Assembly: GCA_046045965.1 (NCBI GenBank)
Contig: JBJOKS010000028.1
Span: forward strand, 1 to 63,325
Reading direction: 5' to 3'
Length of the DNA stretch: 63,325 bases
Source of the DNA: Cyanobacteriota bacterium
Lineage (GTDB): Bacteria; Cyanobacteriota; Cyanobacteriia; Cyanobacteriales; Nostocaceae
Shown here: positions 6,858 through 14,898 of the stretch, one piece after another
Numbering within the stretch: the first letter of the stretch is position 1
Layout: every line of letters begins with the position of its first letter
The notes under the pieces: model-generated
Seen by the model: the letters and a program-made list of their open reading frames with translations, nothing else
What the model was told of the DNA's origin: nothing
Database searches by the model: none
Program-made: the position numbers and the translations under genes

Positions 6858-7355
6858 ATGATTGAAATGAGAGTCGCTGGTATAGCATTAGATGCCATAA
6901 CCCGCAGTCCGATTGTACTCTTGAAAGATAGTTCAGATCGTCGGGCTTTGCCAATTTATATCGGTCAGGATCAGGCTAGGGCAATTATGGGTGCTATGGA
7001 GCATCAAAAACCACCTAGACCTTTAACTCATGACCTGATGGTGAATGTTTTGGAAGTATGGAATATGACCTTGGAAAAGGTAATAATTCATTCTTTGCAA
7101 AAGGATACTTTCTACGCTGCTTTAATTGTACAGCAAGGCGAGGTAAAAAAAGAAATTGATGCCCGTCCTAGTGATGCGATCGCTATTGCCTTACGGACAA
7201 ATGCACCGATTTGGGTAATGGAAGAAGTAGTAGCAGATGCTTCTATTCCCGTTGACCGTGATGCTGATGAAGCTGAACAAGAAGCTTTCCGAGAGTTTGT
7301 TTCTAATCTTCGTCCTGAGGATTTGATTAAGCGATTTGGTAATGGTGATAGTTAA
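6858..7355 (+). CDS. Bifunctional nuclease family protein (DUF151)
   Basis: LPIYIG, RPLTHDL and IDARPSDAIAIA motifs. Confidence 0.9.
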   Translation: MIEMRVAGIALDAITRSPIVLLKDSSDRRALPIYIGQDQARAIMGAMEHQKPPRPLTHDLMVNVLEVWNMTLEKVIIHSLQKDTFYAALIVQQGEVKKEIDARPSDAIAIALRTNAPIWVMEEVVADASIPVDRDADEAEQEAFREFVSNLRPEDLIKRFGNGDS

Positions 7356-7357
7356 AT

Positions 7358-7490
7358 AGGGGAATGGGGAATGGGGAAGAAGCAGGGGAGCAGGGAGCAG
7401 GGAGCAGGGGGAAATTATTTGTATTTTCCCAATCACCAATTACCCATTACTAATTACCCATTACCCATTACCCATTACCAATCACCTATT
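7358..7490. repeat. STRR 7-bp tandem arrays (GGGGAAT, GGGAGCA, ATTACCC/ATTACCA)
   Basis: Heptamer arrays in the intergenic region. Confidence 0.85.
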
Positions 7491-8621
7491 ATGCAATATC
7501 GACGTTTTGGTAAAACAAATTTATTCCTTTCGGTTTTTTCTTTGGGGACAATGCGTTATTTAGCTAACGTAGAAATCGCCCAAAAAACCATTGAAAAAGC
7601 TTTATCTTTGGGAATTAATCACATAGAAACTGCTAGAGGTTATGGTCAAAGTGAGGAGTATTTAGGTACAGCAATAAAAAGCGGTTTGTCAGTACCACGA
7701 AATCAATTATATATCACTTCTAAAATTCCCCCTTGTGCTGATGCTGACACCATGCGTCGATACATTGATGAATCTTTAAAACGTTTAAATTTAGATTATT
7801 TAGATTGTTTGGGTATTCATGGTTTAAATACTCAACAACATCTGGAATGGGTAGAAGCTAAAAATGGTTGTATGCAAGCTGTACAAGAAGCAGTAAATGA
7901 TGGCAGAGTTAAACATATTGGGTTTTCTACTCATGGTGCTTTAGAGATTATTTTGGCAGCAATTAATACAGGTTTATTTGAATTTGTTAATCTCCATTAT
8001 TACTATTTTTTCCAACGTAATAATTCAGCTATTCAAGCAGCTACAGAAAAAGATATGGGTGTGTTTATTATTTCTCCTGCTGATAAAGGAGGAAGACTTT
8101 ATACACCACCAGATAAATTAAAGGAACTCTGTCAACCTTTTACACCTTTAGAATTAAATTATAGATTTTTATTGAGTGATTCAAGAATTACAACTTTAAG
8201 TGTAGGTGCTGCAACTCCAGAAGAATTAATTGCACCTTTAGCAGTTTCTCATAATATTAATGAGTTAACAATGGAAGAAATAAAAGTTTTTAAAAACTTA
8301 GAAAATCAACAAAATCAGGCTTTAGGAACTGATAAATGTAGTCAATGTTATGATTGTTTACCTTGTCCTGAAAATATCAATATTCCTGAAGTTTTAAGAT
8401 TAAGAAATTTGGCAGTAGCTTATGATATGAATGATTATGGAAAATATCGTTATGGAATGTTTGAAAATGCTGGTCATTGGTTTCCAGGAATGAAGGGAAA
8501 TCGTTGTACAGAATGCGGAGATTGTTTACCGAAATGTCCTGAAAATTTAGATATTCCGGTTTTGTTAAATGATACCCATGAAAGATTAAATGGGAAAGCT
8601 GGGAGGAGGTTGTGGAGTTAG
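7491..8621 (+). CDS. Aldo/keto reductase with C-terminal 4Fe-4S dicluster domain
   Basis: MQYRRFGKT start; ETARGYG; GFSTHG; CSQCYDCLPCP and CTECGDCLPKCP. Confidence 0.9.
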   Translation: MQYRRFGKTNLFLSVFSLGTMRYLANVEIAQKTIEKALSLGINHIETARGYGQSEEYLGTAIKSGLSVPRNQLYITSKIPPCADADTMRRYIDESLKRLNLDYLDCLGIHGLNTQQHLEWVEAKNGCMQAVQEAVNDGRVKHIGFSTHGALEIILAAINTGLFEFVNLHYYYFFQRNNSAIQAATEKDMGVFIISPADKGGRLYTPPDKLKELCQPFTPLELNYRFLLSDSRITTLSVGAATPEELIAPLAVSHNINELTMEEIKVFKNLENQQNQALGTDKCSQCYDCLPCPENINIPEVLRLRNLAVAYDMNDYGKYRYGMFENAGHWFPGMKGNRCTECGDCLPKCPENLDIPVLLNDTHERLNGKAGRRLWS

Positions 8622-8683
8622 ATCCCCGACTTCTAAGATTAATTTATAATTTATTGAGAAGATAAAAAAGAAGTCGGGGATCT
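8620..8683. repeat. Palindromic element AGATCCCCGACTTCT...AGAAGTCGGGGATCT, copy 1
   Basis: 15-bp perfect terminal inverted repeat; related copies at 14734, 14841 and 21684. Confidence 0.85.
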
Positions 8684-8692
8684 TTAAATATT

Positions 8693-8932
8693 TTGTCTGA
8701 ATCAGGATGTCCAGGATTTGAGGATTTTCAGGATGAAGAGATTCATGTATTTTAAATGGCATCCACATTTTGTTAATATAAATGAGCGTCAACATTATTA
8801 TATTTCTATTTCTTTCTATATAAAATATTTTTTTGTTAAATAATATATTCTGAAAATCTGCCAATTATCTGCACCATCATCCAAATAAAAATCCTGAAAA
8901 TCCTTTAATCCTGGATATCCTGATTCAGACAA
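8693..8932. mobile_element. MITE-like element with 42-bp terminal inverted repeats
   Basis: TTGTCTGAATCAGGATGTCCAGGATTTGAGGATTTTCAGGAT matches the reverse complement of 8891-8932 at 39/42; AT-rich non-coding core; same family at 46162-46506. Confidence 0.65.
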
Positions 8933-8950
8933 TAAAAATCTGAAAACAAT

Positions 8951-9346
8951 TTAATTTTCTAACCAATTCTCTAATAGCAAATTTTTGATATTGATAAAGT
9001 CTTTAATATTATTAGTTACAAGAATATCACCACGAGAACGAGCAACAGCAGCAATTAAAGCATCTAATTCACCTGTTGGTTTACCAAGTTTTCTGAGTTC
9101 ACTTTGAATTTTGCCAAATTCAATAGCTGCATCTAAATCAAATGCTTCTATAGGCAAAATAGCAATAAATTCTGCTAAATTTTCCAGGTTTTTGACTAAT
9201 TGTTGAGAACAATAAACGCCTTTGTAAAGTTCGGCAACTATAATTATAGATAAATAACACTGACTAAAGTAGCGATTAAATTTATTTACTGCTTGTCGGT
9301 TATTTTTGAGGAGCGCAATACAAATATTAGTATCTAATAGATACAT
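8951..9346 (-). CDS. vapC: VapC-family PIN-domain toxin
   Basis: YLLDTNI, AELYKG, DALIAA and LVTNNIKDF motifs. Confidence 0.92.
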   Translation of the reverse strand: MYLLDTNICIALLKNNRQAVNKFNRYFSQCYLSIIIVAELYKGVYCSQQLVKNLENLAEFIAILPIEAFDLDAAIEFGKIQSELRKLGKPTGELDALIAAVARSRGDILVTNNIKDFINIKNLLLENWLEN

Positions 9347-9633
9347 TATTCATACTCCTCTTGATCAATTGGGTCTATATTTATACCTTGATAAGCATGG
9401 CGTTGTTGGTCAATTTCTGTAAATATTTCGGTTAAATCAGGTTGATTTTCCCACACACCAAATAATTTATTTAGTTTAGCTAATTTTTCCTCTTCTGTTA
9501 AAGATAATTGTGGTGCGGAAATTTGCTTTTCAATAAAATTCAAATCTACTATTATTTCTGTTCCATCGGGAATATTATTAATTTGTTCTATGATTTCAAT
9601 GTTTTGACCGCGTTTTATACCTCTAACTTTCAT
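9346..9633 (-). CDS. Putative antitoxin partner of VapC
   Basis: Small acidic protein upstream of vapC with 1-bp overlap; beta-rich N-terminus MKVRGIKRGQNIEI...IPDGTEIIV. Confidence 0.7.
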   Translation of the reverse strand: MKVRGIKRGQNIEIIEQINNIPDGTEIIVDLNFIEKQISAPQLSLTEEEKLAKLNKLFGVWENQPDLTEIFTEIDQQRHAYQGINIDPIDQEEYE

Positions 9634-9865
9634 GTTTAGTTTTCCTCTATTTTGAGAAATCGGTTAAACAAATATTATAACACTTTTCCCTTCAGTATCT
9701 AGTAACTGCCAAATTTATAAGTTACGTAAATTCTCTATTGCTTTTTGTGTAGATATTTTGAGCTATTTATAAGCAATATCTCGAAAATAAACAATTTTTT
9801 GATTATGGTGACATAAAAATTACAATCATTATTATAATAATCTTAGTTATTTAACACACATCATC

Positions 9866-10537
9866 ATGAGTTCAAAAACAAAGGAATTACAGACGGGTTA
9901 CGCTCAAACTCGCTTGCTGCTTGCGTTGTGGGATTTGGGAGCAAATGAACAGGAAGTGAAAAAAGGTTTGCTGACAAAGCGGATAGTGGCTAAGGGTCAG
10001 AAGATGGCCGACTATAAGGAGATTTTAGAGGATTTGCAAATGCAGGGGGCGGTTAATGTTTCTCGGACTGGTTATACTCTCATGTCACCCATAGGTTTAG
10101 AAGTGTTGGGTGCGGGTTTGCGTAGTAGTGAGTTTAAGTTTGAGGGGACTATTGTTGGTACTTGGGCTGCTAATGCGTTGCTGCGGTGGATAGGTCAGAT
10201 TGATGTTGCGGTAAGTGCGCCGGTTGTTGCTAGTGATGCGGTTAAGGGTGGGGTTATTGGTTCCTATGAGGAGTTTAAAACTGTCGCGTTGGATGTTTAT
10301 GACAAGTTGAATAACGATTACAACCTAGATGATTTAGTACCTATCTATCGCATTAGAAGAGAAATAGGTGAACGAGTTAGCCGTGAAAAATTCAATACAT
10401 GGCTAGTAGAAATGCAAGCAGATGACATTTTACAGTTAATTGCCGGAGAAATACCAGACTTTACCGCTGATAAACGGGAAGATTCGATTTCTATACCAGG
10501 TACACAATTACGTTCTTATGCTAAACGCTTGATTTAA
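9866..10537 (+). CDS. Hypothetical protein, probably two winged-helix-like domains; first gene of three-gene operon
   Basis: N-terminal helix-turn-helix/wing pattern; C-terminal LVPIYRIRREIG...FNTWLVEMQ helical pattern; fold call is inference. Confidence 0.7.
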   Translation: MSSKTKELQTGYAQTRLLLALWDLGANEQEVKKGLLTKRIVAKGQKMADYKEILEDLQMQGAVNVSRTGYTLMSPIGLEVLGAGLRSSEFKFEGTIVGTWAANALLRWIGQIDVAVSAPVVASDAVKGGVIGSYEEFKTVALDVYDKLNNDYNLDDLVPIYRIRREIGERVSREKFNTWLVEMQADDILQLIAGEIPDFTADKREDSISIPGTQLRSYAKRLI

Positions 10538-10584
10538 TCACATTATCTACAAACTTTTTCGTTCCTTGCACCTGAGAAATTACC

Positions 10585-12507
10585 ATGACAAATACTCCTT
10601 TTTCTCCCATAGAAGCTGTTAACACCGCAATCAATAATCATAATCCATTTACTAATGCTGGAATTGTTAAAGAACAGGATGTTTGGGGAAAAGGAGTCCC
10701 CGATGTACCCACATTAAACGCCCATGCTTCTAATAAAGTTTTTCAAGCCATTGAATTTGTTAAAAAAAGTCAATCTAGTCAAGATAAAGTAACTTCAATT
10801 GCTATTACTGCACAACAGGGAGTTGGTAAAACCCATCTTTTGAGTCGCATTCGTCATGAACTGGAAAAACAGGGAGGTGCTTTATTTGTCTATGCCAGTG
10901 CTAATAACTATACAGACTTAAATTTAGTTAAGTACCAATTCCAGCAAACTTTAGCAGATAGTCTGAGTAAAACTGGTAGCCAACAAGTTATGCAATGGCA
11001 AGAAGTAGCCGCAGCTATGGCCAACGAAGGTAGAGAAAAAGCTCCTACTCCAGCAGAATTAGTCAAAAGATTTGACCAAGCTTATAAAAAGAATAAAAAC
11101 TTAATGAATAATCTGCAAAAACAGGTTATTAAAAATAAATCTGATGCAGATCCTTATATTCTTCGTGCTATTTTGTGGACACTTTCAGAAACCCAAGCTC
11201 CTTTTGCGATTAAATGGCTATCTGGAGAAGAATTAGCTCAATTAAATGCTGATGAATTGGGATTACCTAATCCTAGTAAAACTAATCAAGATAGAGAAAG
11301 TGAAGCTCTTAAAAATATTCAACAAATTTTAAATTTAGTTGGTTATTACAACTCAATTGTTATTTGTTTTGATGAAATAGAAGTTGAAAGCAACTGTAAT
11401 GAGGATGGATTTCCTACAGCAAGTGTAATTGCTAATTTCGTGAAAATTCTTCATGATACTTTGGAAAATTCAGACCTTAGCCAAGGTGTAGTTATTCTAA
11501 CAGTTATGATGCCTGAAGCATGGAGAGATAAAGTAAATTCTCTTCCAGGTGGTACACCTGATAGAATTTCCAAATTCACACAACGAAAACCAGTAGATTT
11601 GAAATTTGTTAGTGCTGATTCTATGGTACAGTTAGCGACTGTTTGGCTGCGAGAATATTACAGTTCAAAAAACTTAATTCCTCCACATCAACTTTACCCA
11701 TTTGAAGAAATTCATCTGAGAGAATACGGGAAAAACAAACCAACTGTGAGGGAAGCTTTACGATGGTGTGCAGATAACTTTAAGGTTGAAGAAGAAAAAC
11801 TTCCTGATGATCCATTTGAGAGGTTTGAACTAGCATTTACAAGGGAAAGTGAGGTAAAGATTGAAGAATATATAGAGGATGCTTCTCGAATATCTGAAGC
11901 TCTTTATTTTGGCTTTAATACTTTAAAAGGACAGACAATAGAATGCGTAATGATTGAAGACATTACCAACGATATCAAACCTAAAGCAAAAAATAACAAC
12001 TTTATCAATTTTAAAATTATTGGTAAAGAAAATGGAAAAGAAGTAAAAATTGGTGTATCGGTTATCCAGGATTCTCAATTTACATTAAATGCAGCTTTAA
12101 AACGTTTGAATGACTATCATACTTTTGATTTAACACGTGGTTGTTTAGTGCGTTCTCAATCAAAAATAAAACAAATGAAAAAAACAGCAGCTACATATAG
12201 TTTGCTGAATGAGTTGATTATACACAAAGGGGGAGAAAATGTAGATTTAATAGAAGATCAAATTCGTCCACTTATAGCCATCTTAGCTATTTATCAAAAG
12301 CGACAAACTTATAAACTAACAGAGGAACAGATTTTTGATTTTATATCTAAAAATAACATCACATTTGATAATCTGTTATTAAGAGAAATTTTAAGTGATC
12401 CATCTGGTAATATGCCTGATGTTGATGATATGGGAGGATTATTTGATGAAGATGATAATATTTCTGATGTTGATGATGAAGATAATTTGAGTGATTTATT
12501 TGGTTAA
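10585..12507 (+). CDS. P-loop ATPase, BrxD/DUF2791-like
   Basis: Walker A AQQGVGKTH; Walker B IVICFDEIE; AIKWLSGE...LGL motif resembling BrxD-like ATPases; acidic C-terminal tail. Confidence 0.8.
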   Translation: MTNTPFSPIEAVNTAINNHNPFTNAGIVKEQDVWGKGVPDVPTLNAHASNKVFQAIEFVKKSQSSQDKVTSIAITAQQGVGKTHLLSRIRHELEKQGGALFVYASANNYTDLNLVKYQFQQTLADSLSKTGSQQVMQWQEVAAAMANEGREKAPTPAELVKRFDQAYKKNKNLMNNLQKQVIKNKSDADPYILRAILWTLSETQAPFAIKWLSGEELAQLNADELGLPNPSKTNQDRESEALKNIQQILNLVGYYNSIVICFDEIEVESNCNEDGFPTASVIANFVKILHDTLENSDLSQGVVILTVMMPEAWRDKVNSLPGGTPDRISKFTQRKPVDLKFVSADSMVQLATVWLREYYSSKNLIPPHQLYPFEEIHLREYGKNKPTVREALRWCADNFKVEEEKLPDDPFERFELAFTRESEVKIEEYIEDASRISEALYFGFNTLKGQTIECVMIEDITNDIKPKAKNNNFINFKIIGKENGKEVKIGVSVIQDSQFTLNAALKRLNDYHTFDLTRGCLVRSQSKIKQMKKTAATYSLLNELIIHKGGENVDLIEDQIRPLIAILAIYQKRQTYKLTEEQIFDFISKNNITFDNLLLREILSDPSGNMPDVDDMGGLFDEDDNISDVDDEDNLSDLFG

Positions 12508-12513
12508 TTAATT

Positions 12514-13911
12514 ATGAATAAATCGGTTTCAATCTACAATGCTTTATGTTTACCAGTTCCTGATATTGAAGCTTTGATACAAGGACGAAGTATTGCTGCA
12601 ATTCCTCGTAAATTGGTGAATACTGGGCAAAAATTCGCTCTTTATCCTGTTGATACTTCAGCAAATGTGATTTCAATTAAAGCATGGGCTAAATGTGAAC
12701 TTTGTCAAATTCCAGATAAAACAACACCTTTAGATATTTTATCTCAATTAACCATCTGGAAACCAGAAAGATTTGAGGAAATATTACAAAAACATCCGCA
12801 TTTTTTTCTAGCTTATTTACGAGTTTATCATTTACCTGAACCTTTGGAAATTCCAGCTATTCCTAATATTCAAGATAAACTGGGTAAATTTGTCGGTTTA
12901 CCTACTATTTCCGCTTCTGAAGCTAAACCCGTATTAAGTGATTATGTATTTAACCAACGTAAACAACAATTAGAAAACCTCCAACCTCCTCTACATCCCG
13001 AACTAGAAGAATTACAAAGTTTATTATTACCAATAGCTAACAATAACCCAGCAGCACAACAATTAGAAAATGACATCAACGTATTTTTAGGTTGGAGTAA
13101 TGAACCAAATAAAAATACACTAAATTCTGATTTAACTTGGATCAAAACAATTACAACATTAGGAGATAGAAGCATAGAATTTGAAGAGAAAAAAAGTAAC
13201 TATCAAGCGGGTACAGACTTTGAAAACATCTCCCGTCAAAGCCTTGATTTTTTAGGTTTTAAAGTTGAAAATGCTTATAAAGGAGGTGCGGGAGGTTTAG
13301 ATTTATATTGTTCACAACCTTATCCTATTGTTTGCGAATGTAAAGCAGGTAAAAGTATTCCAGATCGTGCAGTAGAAGAATTAGATAGAATTGGTAAAAG
13401 ACATCTGCAAGAAAATTATCTGCAAGCAGTACGCTTAATTATTGGACCAGGAGAACCTACAAAACAACTCAAAAAATCTCTCGAAAAATCTGCGAAAATA
13501 TCTAAAACCAGTATTATTAAAGCTATGACATTACAAAAATTAGTAGAACTAAAAGCAAAATATCCAGGTGCAATAAATTTAATTGAATTAAAAGAATACT
13601 TAGAACCAGGACAAATAGACTATAAAATTAACGAATATATAGATAAAATAGAAAAAGAGATAAAATTGCGATCGCACATTATTCAACTCGTTAAAAACTA
13701 TCTCCAAAATGCAGGAATAGAATCTACAGGAGTTGACACTTTACATGGTGCATATTTTGGATCACATCCACCACAACCACTTAAAACAGAAGAAATGCAC
13801 GAAATATTAATAGAACTATCATCACCCCTAACAGGATACTTAGGAAGAGAAAAAGGAAACGACTGGAAAACAGATAAATTCTATTATTTACGCGACTTAC
13901 CAATAAATTAA
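12514..13911 (+). CDS. DUF1802-like N-terminal domain fused to a PD-(D/E)xK (Mrr-like) endonuclease domain
   Basis: N-term DIEALIQGR..FALYP..IKAWA..LRVYHLPEP; nuclease motif FE(x)n GGAGGLDL(x)n ECKAG. Confidence 0.75.
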   Translation: MNKSVSIYNALCLPVPDIEALIQGRSIAAIPRKLVNTGQKFALYPVDTSANVISIKAWAKCELCQIPDKTTPLDILSQLTIWKPERFEEILQKHPHFFLAYLRVYHLPEPLEIPAIPNIQDKLGKFVGLPTISASEAKPVLSDYVFNQRKQQLENLQPPLHPELEELQSLLLPIANNNPAAQQLENDINVFLGWSNEPNKNTLNSDLTWIKTITTLGDRSIEFEEKKSNYQAGTDFENISRQSLDFLGFKVENAYKGGAGGLDLYCSQPYPIVCECKAGKSIPDRAVEELDRIGKRHLQENYLQAVRLIIGPGEPTKQLKKSLEKSAKISKTSIIKAMTLQKLVELKAKYPGAINLIELKEYLEPGQIDYKINEYIDKIEKEIKLRSHIIQLVKNYLQNAGIESTGVDTLHGAYFGSHPPQPLKTEEMHEILIELSSPLTGYLGREKGNDWKTDKFYYLRDLPIN

Positions 13912-13979: not shown

Positions 13980-14342
13980 TCATCCCAAAGTTAAAACACC
14001 CGCTGGAAAATTCACCACCAAAGGCAAAAACTCCAACCACGCAGAACCCAACAAAATCTCCGTTAATTCATCTCCAGCATAAACAGGAATTTCATACTCT
14101 TGGTTATCCAAAATTACCTTACCTAAATAAATGTCAAATCTAGACTCTCCCTGTGCAGTGCGTAGCTTTTCCTTAGATATAAATGACCAATTTAGACCTT
14201 GTAAATCTTGTTTATTAATAGCCATAAAGCCTGTGAAACCAGTATCAAACAAAGCATCTACAGGTAGATTTAAGCCATCAGCAGTAATTAATTCAACCTC
14301 AAAAAATAACCGCCCCCCATCACCAAAATAACCCTGTATCAT
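13980..14342 (-). CDS. Clan AA (retropepsin-like) aspartyl protease
   Basis: ALFDTGF catalytic motif and EILLG C-terminal motif; 120 aa. Confidence 0.85.
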   Translation of the reverse strand: MIQGYFGDGGRLFFEVELITADGLNLPVDALFDTGFTGFMAINKQDLQGLNWSFISKEKLRTAQGESRFDIYLGKVILDNQEYEIPVYAGDELTEILLGSAWLEFLPLVVNFPAGVLTLG

Positions 14343-14656
14343 ATTCTGCCAGTTACTCCAGTTTCATTGATACCAAATAAAAAATGTATCACATTAGGAT
14401 GTTTCTCTCTAGCTTTCTTACTAGCAGTTTCCTTATCCTGATCAACAAAATAATCACCGCTATCTGGTTCTATAGCAATATACCAACCATAATGTTCTTT
14501 TATCAACTCAGGACGCAATTGTTCAAAAATTGCCCAGCAACGTTGATAAAATAGTTCATCTTCAGCTTTACGTTTAGCTAACTCTTCTGGTGATAAAGTC
14601 AATTCAGGAAAAATCCTGCCTCTTCTTCTTGGTTGTTGTGATGTTAATTGTGTCAT
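14339..14656 (-). CDS. Small hypothetical protein (DUF5678-like) translationally coupled to the protease
   Basis: ELIKEHYGWYIAIEPDSGDYFV...AREKHP pattern; ATGA overlap with the protease gene. Confidence 0.75.
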   Translation of the reverse strand: MTQLTSQQPRRRGRIFPELTLSPEELAKRKAEDELFYQRCWAIFEQLRPELIKEHYGWYIAIEPDSGDYFVDQDKETASKKAREKHPNVIHFLFGINETGVTGRI

Positions 14657-14733: not shown

Positions 14734-14799
14734 AGATCCCCGACTTCTTTTGTTTATTATGTCCATAAATGATAAATTGATCTTAGAAGTCGGGGATCT
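14734..14799. repeat. Palindromic element copy 2, inverted relative to copy 1
   Basis: Reverse complement aligns with 8620-8683 including the loop; a short variant follows at 14841-14873. Confidence 0.85.
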
Positions 14800-14898
14800 G
14801 GGTATGAACGATTGCTATTTTGCGTGAGATTAAAAAAGTTAAATCCCCGACTTCTTCAAGAAATCGAGGATTTAAACAACAGGATAATTAATTGTTTT

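Follow-up and report, generated by a model that had tools for sequence, protein, structure and literature searches.

The window analysed here, contig C28 (JBJOKS010000028.1) of a 5.3-Mb genome (G000) of a nostocacean cyanobacterium, is 63,325 nucleotides long and carries a cassette of three genes at positions 9866 to 13911. A preliminary description of this DNA had taken the cassette for an undescribed defence system composed of a winged-helix-turn-helix (wHTH)-like protein, a BrxD-like ATPase and a DUF1802-like nuclease. Gene 1 (9866..10537, 223 amino acids, aa), gene 2 (10585..12507, 640 aa) and gene 3 (12514..13911, 465 aa) are open reading frames (ORFs) on the + strand, and their coordinates, their common orientation and the gaps of 47 and 6 bp between them were confirmed. 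The cassette holds no methyltransferase, pglX or pglZ gene and is neither a bacteriophage exclusion (BREX) nor a classical restriction-modification system, as had been stated; PADLOC gave no full-system match, as had been anticipated, but only weak ones (E 0.004 and 0.007). We regard the cassette as a conserved unit that likely has an anti-invader role, on the basis of its co-occurrence, catalytic residues, patchy loss and allelic diversity.

The association of the three genes was examined in two sets of loci, which share genomes. For set A, gene 2 was searched in 61 related genomes and matched in 46 of them, in some weakly; its closest named homologues are in Dolichospermum and Anabaena. At 34 of the 38 loci with a strong match, the window included, all three genes were present in order, and the exceptions were one locus cut by a contig end, one broken locus without gene 3 and two lone ATPases. 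Set B was drawn from 303 gene-3 loci in genome contigs, of which the 80 best were taken, and linkage was counted at the 73 loci with at least 3.3 kb of upstream DNA. Genes 1 and 2 lie upstream of gene 3 in all 73, far beyond chance; 67 of these loci are intact and the ATPase is split or truncated in 6. No further gene recurs in the cassette at the mapped loci, except an extra ATPase copy in four. The comparisons below use 70 intact triads, namely 69 from set B (two with shorter upstream DNA) and the window, a sample biased toward the nuclease allele of the window. This co-occurrence, with the intact catalytic residues given below, upholds the proposed unit of ATPase, nuclease and DNA-binding protein.

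As judged from its AlphaFold2 (AF2) model, gene 2 encodes an Orc1/Cdc6-clade AAA+ ATPase (aa 11-402); behind this core come an alpha/beta domain (aa 410-556), a tail of three helices and an acidic terminus. The protein matches the Pfam families KAP_NTPase and AAA_16/22, and the model was built from 39 alignment rows with a predicted local distance difference test (pLDDT) score of 88 and a predicted template modelling score of 0.64. In fold searches covering aa 9-402, the best match, over aa 11-402, was archaeal Cdc6/Orc1 (Z 14.7, root-mean-square deviation 4.3, 242 residues aligned); the top Cdc6/Orc1 matches range over Z 14.7-15.0, and Drosophila Cdc6 was also matched. Further matches were TnsC (Z 14.2), BrxC (13.3), MuB (12.9) and Avs3 (12.5), and a viral fold library gave none at E<=0.001. 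Both Walker motifs are intact, as had been noted: Walker A is AQQGVGKT (aa 76-83, 10810..10833, + strand) and Walker B is ICFDE (aa 260-264), with its acidic pair D263-E264 at 11371..11376 (+ strand). Residues K82, D263, E264 and R389 are invariant in the 70 triads, every one of which has R or K at position 327; from their positions, 327 would be the arginine finger and 389 sensor II. The earlier label "BrxD-like" holds at the level of the Orc/Cdc6 clade and no further, because no BrxC_BrxD Pfam match was found at E<=0.1. The ATPase profile also drew YTH matches (E 0.004); they lie within the AAA+ core, and we regard them as chance hits.

In the model, aa 433-554 of the domain behind the AAA+ core run helix, three strands, helix, strand, helix, strand, with no E-x-K, which would fit a probable inactive restriction endonuclease (REase) fold; sequence and profile searches gave no REase match for this domain. 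The C-terminus is modelled as three helices (aa 557-603) and then an acidic tail that is disordered; strands of a wing are absent.

Several other ATPase genes of this kind were seen. Extra or lone copies stand beside or away from the cassette in L042, L043, L049, L050, L058 and L065, and in the extra or lone ATPases of L049, L058 and L065 Walker B is altered (FDD, FDN and FDR). Homologues with an added C-terminal domain, either SeqA-like (a possible methyl-adenine reader) or a NucS nuclease, occur at L061:7895-10063 and as P0257, P0316 and P0381. Contig C30 of the window's own genome (L068:7488-9923) holds a lone 811-aa ATPase of a sister family, fused to an N-terminal DEDD-type exonuclease (RNase_T), with no wHTH or effector neighbour.

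Gene 1 is probably a tandem winged-helix protein by its sequence, with an N domain at about aa 13-115 and a C domain at about aa 130-223. The window copy has no Pfam match; among its homologues the N domain gives weak wHTH matches (SelB-wing_2 in 4 of 28 members, best E 1.7e-4), and a match to the RIO2 N-terminus is weak (E 0.64). Gene 1 is homologous to a 283-aa wHTH protein encoded in sister operons with FtsK (hhalign prob 91.9, E 7e-7), and since the alignment spans aa 99-269 of that protein, two wHTH domains are suggested. PADLOC gave no DndG or SspB model match for gene 1. One gene-1 homologue (P0208) is from Trichormus variabilis ATCC 29413. When gene 1 was modelled in complex with gene 2, as had been proposed, the score was 0.57 against 0.00 for the best control, with run agreement of at least 0% of contacts and a partner pLDDT of at least 74. 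Of 157 solved pairs, 116 attain the pass mark of this score, as do 2 of 215 mismatched pairs, but passing scores of 0.60 or under account for only 18 of the 157 solved pairs and for both passing mismatches, so that the model lends weak support to a complex.

Gene 3 begins with a DUF1802 domain (12541..12969, + strand; PF08819, E 5.7e-26), predicted to be an ASCH/PUA-like reader of modified bases. The window copy is without the insert of about 30 aa that most homologues have in this domain, a short form shared by 23 of the 70 triads. The middle domain (13210..13401, + strand), when isolated, passes Mrr_cat (PF04471) with 23 bits against a cut-off of 21, and 25 of 28 homologues match as well. 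Its E237, D263, E275 and K277, the E...D...ExK motif pointed out in the preliminary description, are kept in 70 of 70 triads, and from the sequence it is an intact-looking Mrr-like PD-(D/E)xK nuclease. Thus a nuclease is present as had been claimed, whereas the name "DUF1802-like nuclease" fails, DUF1802 being a separate N-terminal domain. The C-terminal domain has no family match; a sequence pattern marks it as a probable winged helix. A single-sequence fold of gene 3 reached a pLDDT of 35, too low to give a fold. In PDB sequence searches, whether by single protein or by profile, neither genes 1 and 3 nor the isolated domains had a significant match. In-house hhalign tests (DUF1802 against ASCH, ATPase C-domain against nuclease, wHTH against wHTH) had no power, the positive control having failed; DUF1802 against ASCH gave prob 0.10-0.37, and the ASCH against ASCH control was also low (0.38). 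DUF1802 has an unrelated mention, and no other, in the accessible open-access literature. A stand-alone, highly conserved DUF1802 gene of about 190 aa (G000:C1:217955-218476 and L123-L152) is found in most related genomes, cassette-free ones included.

Pairwise distances of 13 blocks of the cassette were correlated across the 70 triads. The C-terminal wing segment of gene 1 (aa 186-222, 10421..10531, + strand) is co-inherited with the ATPase allele: its distances correlate with those of the ATPase blocks at 0.74-0.77, against only 0.16-0.30 for the adjacent aa 130-185, and the wing motif tracks the ATPase cluster, one motif being common to 19 of the 20 members in the window's cluster. The nuclease and the helices following it form a second block (0.75 mutually, about 0 with the ATPase). 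A segment of the gene-3 C-terminal domain, aa 386-430 (13669..13803, + strand), probably the recognition-helix region, correlates at 0.30 or less with every other block. The ATPase block falls into 7 clusters at 55% identity. At the 41 loci linked to pgi, the gene-1 N domain follows pgi (rho 0.84) whereas the ATPase does not (-0.07 to 0.06); the same pgi site holds four ATPase clusters and a singleton, and among pairs with pgi at least 94% identical, 129 of 168 (pairs not independent) have ATPases less than 60% identical. Two loci serve as examples. In L057, from the same genus, the DNA is 94% identical to the window up to 10434, then divergent, and identity resumes at 12505; in L033, another same-genus relative, gene 3 has 31% identity in aa 386-430 and 91-96% in the neighbouring blocks. 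By these sequence comparisons, each of three blocks (gene-1 wing with ATPase; nuclease; gene-3 C-terminal helix region) is swapped independently of the other two. Part of the coupling between wing and ATPase could stem from their close linkage.

This variation bears on how the cassette would act. The main rival to restriction of modified DNA, the reading that we set out below, is abortive infection, which we consider rather unlikely: the ATPase with its variable helical insertion and the partner wing would sense a phage protein or DNA structure, oligomerise and release the nuclease of gene 3 against the DNA of both phage and host, so that the infected cell of the filament dies. It fits with the ATPase block being the carrier of deep trans-species alleles that are decoupled from the host marker, but such diversity could equally be escape from phage inhibitors. 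Related STAND sensors are among the fold matches (Avs3, above), yet a repeat-type sensor domain is absent and the DUF1802 and winged-helix domains point to DNA-directed recognition. The want of a self-marking enzyme, and the concentration of the module in families close to the filamentous host, would also suit a system that kills its own cell.

The cassette sits mostly among housekeeping genes at fixed chromosomal sites, with pgi in the flank of 41 of the 70 loci. The site is often downstream of mutM-ndhO-mdh; a second group lies between what we take to be pil/folC-like genes and acnB, and the mutM linkage is lost both in this group and at the window's own site. At L158 (genome G014), the mutM-ndhO-mdh ... 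pgi site is intact and the cassette is cleanly missing between mdh and pgi, and four other cassette-free genomes have no cassette near pgi. A second cassette copy in the window's genome (contig C16, L067:7791-11451) has another ATPase allele, with about 40% identity, and an in-frame deletion of the linker and nuclease core of gene 3. With the empty site in L158, the 6 of 73 loci with broken ATPases and this nuclease-deleted copy, the cassette is dispensable. Across the phylum, the gene-1 profile matched 60 of 301 genomes (some matches partial or to the sister family), with 29 of 35 in the window's own family, 13 of 14 in another family and a single one among the 165 genomes of the eight families at the end of the list.

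The fixed sites, often behind mutM-ndhO-mdh, and the high prevalence might indicate a housekeeping helper of DNA repair or replication that recognises damaged bases and incises DNA, and stand-alone DUF1802 genes are indeed near-universal (a DUF1802 match in 54 of the 61 related genomes) and also present in Deinococcus radiodurans. We hold this to be improbable: clean absence, broken copies and deep allele swapping are atypical of such a function, and the link with mutM is lost at two of its settings as described. TnsA combines a nuclease with a winged helix. A selfish or domesticated Tn7-like module, made of a TnsC-like ATPase, a TnsA-like nuclease with winged helix and a targeting protein and spreading or persisting by addiction or homing, would share parts with the cassette; TnsC and MuB are among the top fold matches and a second copy stands elsewhere in the genome. 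The sites are, however, few and stable, no DDE transposase or integrase family recurs across the 41 mapped loci and no plasmid or viral copy was matched, and we judge this origin highly improbable. Restriction, the preferred reading, is in keeping with the dispensability and the allele exchange.

The preliminary description had placed the cassette in a defence island flanked by toxin-antitoxin (TA)-like modules. This argument is weak, because the cassette is mostly among housekeeping genes at fixed sites, and the island itself was rejected, because the flanking gene order is common to same-genus relatives. On the left, the pair at 8951-9633, described there as TA-like, is vapBC-like (PIN 1.6e-14; NF047863 121 bits, below the cut-off of 140); it is absent at the L033 site and represented by the antitoxin alone in L057, and in the window it is a recent gain or loss. 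On the right, the pair at 13980-14656 consists of a 105-aa protein and a clan AA aspartic-protease-like protein; it lies outside the system, because it has 3-4 copies in its own genome and is also present at the cassette-free L158 site, and in relatives it is often tandem beside pgi. The idea that the flanking pairs belong to the system was therefore dropped. Short dispersed inverted repeats lie in intergenic DNA on either side (window 8620-8930 and 14734-14800), with two cores of 11-13 bases that occur 70 and 111 times genome-wide. A GmrSD-like/NsnA-like gene with a HEPN neighbour was seen near the cassette in three loci (L031:6016-7164, L032 and L051). A promoter scan of the locus stayed at chance level (15 found, 19.8 expected). 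Metatranscriptome contigs in two runs cover parts of the cassette and the flanks too; they were not used as evidence of transcription, because contigs cannot show it.

The octamer HIP1 (highly iterated palindrome 1) is distributed unevenly in the cassette. The claim of a HIP1-poor island is only partly right. By length, the gap from 7184 to 13667 ranks in the top 4% of inter-HIP1 gaps (107 of 2604), but gaps of this class hold 18% of the genome's inter-HIP1 DNA, and one HIP1 (GCGATCGC, 13668..13675, no strand assigned), the sole one of the window's cassette, falls within gene 3. This site marks the left border of the exchangeable C-terminal segment and recurs at the same position in 58 of 70 loci. 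Over the 70 loci, gene 1 has 118 sites in 46.9 kb (60 of 70 genes) and gene 3 has 216 in 101.3 kb (68 of 70), against 3 in 133.5 kb (3 of 70) for gene 2. Of the sites permitted by the protein, 77% are realised in gene 1, 83% in gene 3, 79% in flanking ORFs and 9% in gene 2, with similar GC content at third codon positions in gene 2 (0.26) and gene 3 (0.28). After collapsing at 70% identity, any HIP1 is present in 1 of 23 ATPase clusters, 16 of 20 for gene 1 and 28 of 29 for gene 3. Sister-operon ATPases have 0.38 HIP1 per kb (10 of 24 genes), and the lone ATPase of L065 has five. The HIP1 content of genes 1 and 3 was considered as an exceptional enrichment and not retained, because its 2.1-2.5 per kb barely exceeds the 0.6-1.9 per kb of flanking housekeeping families.

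HIP1 sites cluster at aa 62, 130 and 168 of gene 1 and at aa 142, 170, 217, 385 and 453 of gene 3. Among 1196 identity switch points (355 pairs), 862 lie within 25 codons of these positions, a zone that makes up 27% of the length; when the count is confined to genes 1 and 3, the share is 82% on 52% of the length. HIP1 in homology arms raises integration and has been likened to Chi (10.1101/2024.09.10.611283, in its accessible part), and the accessible text of PMC13756078 links HIP1 to gene transfer. It is possible, though we doubt it, that the cassette is a polymorphic immunity locus in which strains trade sensor, nuclease and specificity blocks through homologous recombination, with HIP1 sites in conserved frames as the anchors and HIP1 selectively excluded inside co-adapted blocks. 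A number of points stand against such a causal role. The pairs are not independent, and conserved frames keep both homology and HIP1; HIP1 positions are conserved genome-wide anyway, according to the part of PMC5861425 at hand; one flanking family of 19 copies is also without HIP1; a switch cluster at gene 3 aa 320-340 has none; and in the window's group most sites are gone, with one left in the cassette, although the group shows a recent swap of the ATPase that has no HIP1 at its left junction. A per-segment HIP1 table was not used as a test because it was circular, its borders having been drawn around the sites. No paper on a HIP1-free ATPase pattern was found in the open-access literature, nor one on block exchange at fixed sites.

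That the cassette serves defence of some kind is quite probable. As to its form, the chances seem to us about evenly balanced that it is a methyltransferase-free, ATP-dependent, modification-dependent restriction system under balancing selection. What the sequences show is a three-gene unit that retains its ATPase and nuclease residues. The ATPase, to go by its fold and conserved arginines, would assemble on double-stranded DNA as a ring or spiral, in the manner of Orc/Cdc6, TnsC and BrxC. Gene 1 would be a winged-helix loader or targeting subunit that docks on the ATPase through its C-terminal wing, as co-inheritance and, weakly, the complex model suggest. The catalytically dead alpha/beta domain of the ATPase may then recruit gene 3, whose DUF1802 would read a modified base while its swappable C-terminal helix sets sequence preference, and the Mrr-like domain is predicted to cleave the invading, probably base-modified DNA. 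Self would be spared because host DNA is without the foreign mark and the unit has no methyltransferase. The deep alleles of three blocks are exchanged at fixed sites, as expected under phage-driven balancing selection, which may be the cause. The relatives also favour this reading: some ATPases carry the SeqA-like or NucS C-terminal domains mentioned above, and sister operons have exonuclease-REase-FtsK effectors.

Several observations weigh against it. Reading of modified DNA by ASCH is predicted and not established (PMC11037411 and PMC7641849, as far as their accessible text goes), and the link between DUF1802 and ASCH is itself a prediction (hhalign prob <0.4, with a control that failed too). 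The inactive-REase assignment of gene 2 has the order of secondary-structure elements in the model as its sole basis. Variation is greatest in the ATPase, and this suits a sensor, as in abortive infection, at least as well. Gene 1 is present in 29 of 35 genomes of its own family, which is high for a defence system, and the cassette has no plasmid match and no viral-contig match. Among 114 representatives of 206 neighbouring ORFs, 13 match PADLOC at 1e-8, a count that has no control set beside it; six of these are generic ABC, TPR, cyclase or invertase domains, four are PDC-S03-type and three are more specific.

If the role in defence is true, the cassette would be among the most prevalent predicted immune systems of bloom-forming, nitrogen-fixing filamentous cyanobacteria, and cyanophage host range as well as the difficulty of introducing DNA into these strains may be affected by it. 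It would also give a function to DUF1802 and a test of ASCH-like reading of modified DNA. Block exchange together with near-absent HIP1 in the ATPase offers a natural system for the proposed recombination-promoting role of HIP1; if the anchoring described above were true, HIP1 would be a natural case of a Chi-like signal for crossover with an effect on gene architecture, and a direct handle on its long-open function would be gained.

Among known systems, the cassette resembles the type IV reader-nuclease fusions (EVE-HNH VcaM4I, EVE-Mrr) in having a predicted reader domain and a nuclease without a methyltransferase, but differs from them in that ATPase and winged-helix partners are obligate; the ESM Atlas gave Mrr_cat and EVE-Mrr_cat clusters at 0.81-0.84, which we take as a lead only. 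With BREX and SspABCD/DndFGH it shares an Orc/Cdc6-clade ATPase (as the match to BrxC shows, Z 13.3) and a winged-helix partner in the role of BrxA, SspB or DndG, according to the accessible parts of PMC12839542 and PMC10853773; the former identifies BrxD and BrxC as Orc/Cdc6 ATPases, and DUF1802 is absent from its main text as far as that is accessible. Unlike BREX, it has no PglZ, PglX or phosphoadenosine phosphosulfate (PAPS) reductase, one weak methyltransferase-like match in L034 being found among the 114 neighbours, and unlike SspABCD-E and DndFGH it has no PADLOC match to SspD, DndF, DndH or a phosphorothioation enzyme. In the sister operons (L069, L070 and L243-L260), which are HerA/FtsK capture systems with an Orc/Cdc6 ATPase as in PMC10853773, both the wHTH protein (prob 91.9) and the ATPase (prob 99.5) are homologous to those of the cassette, and the gene order is the same; their third gene is a 3'-5' exonuclease with PD-(D/E)xK and FtsK, whereas the cassette has the DUF1802-nuclease and HerA/FtsK is absent from it. 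Of these operons, L250 and L256 have two tandem ATPases instead of the usual layout, and L254 has an extra ATPase.

The closest counterpart is an operon type predicted by Rakesh, Aravind and Krishnan (2024, PMC10853773, section 22), left unnamed there and assigned a role against selfish elements in one sentence, so that the cassette cannot be called undescribed as it had been. Searches of the open-access literature turned up no experiments on this type and nothing on allele exchange or HIP1 in connection with it, and the accessible text of PMC10853773 does not mention cyanobacteria, DUF1802, mosaicism or HIP1. It does describe Orc/Cdc6 ATPases with an inactive REase, and differences from the cassette can be read from it: a DndG-like triple wHTH (range 2-4), whereas gene 1 looks to have two; a C-terminal wHTH on the ATPase, whereas the gene-2 model ends in three helices with no wing; and mobile neighbourhoods, whereas the cassette is at fixed chromosomal sites with allele exchange. 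The agreement lies in the same three components, with no HerA/FtsK and no methyltransferase. In the cassette we found an Orc/Cdc6 ATPase with Walker motifs, an REase whose active site appears present in the sequence and no HerA/FtsK, and on this comparison the cassette is likely a representative of that operon type, Orc/Cdc6 with an ASCH-REase and a DndG-like multi-wHTH protein.

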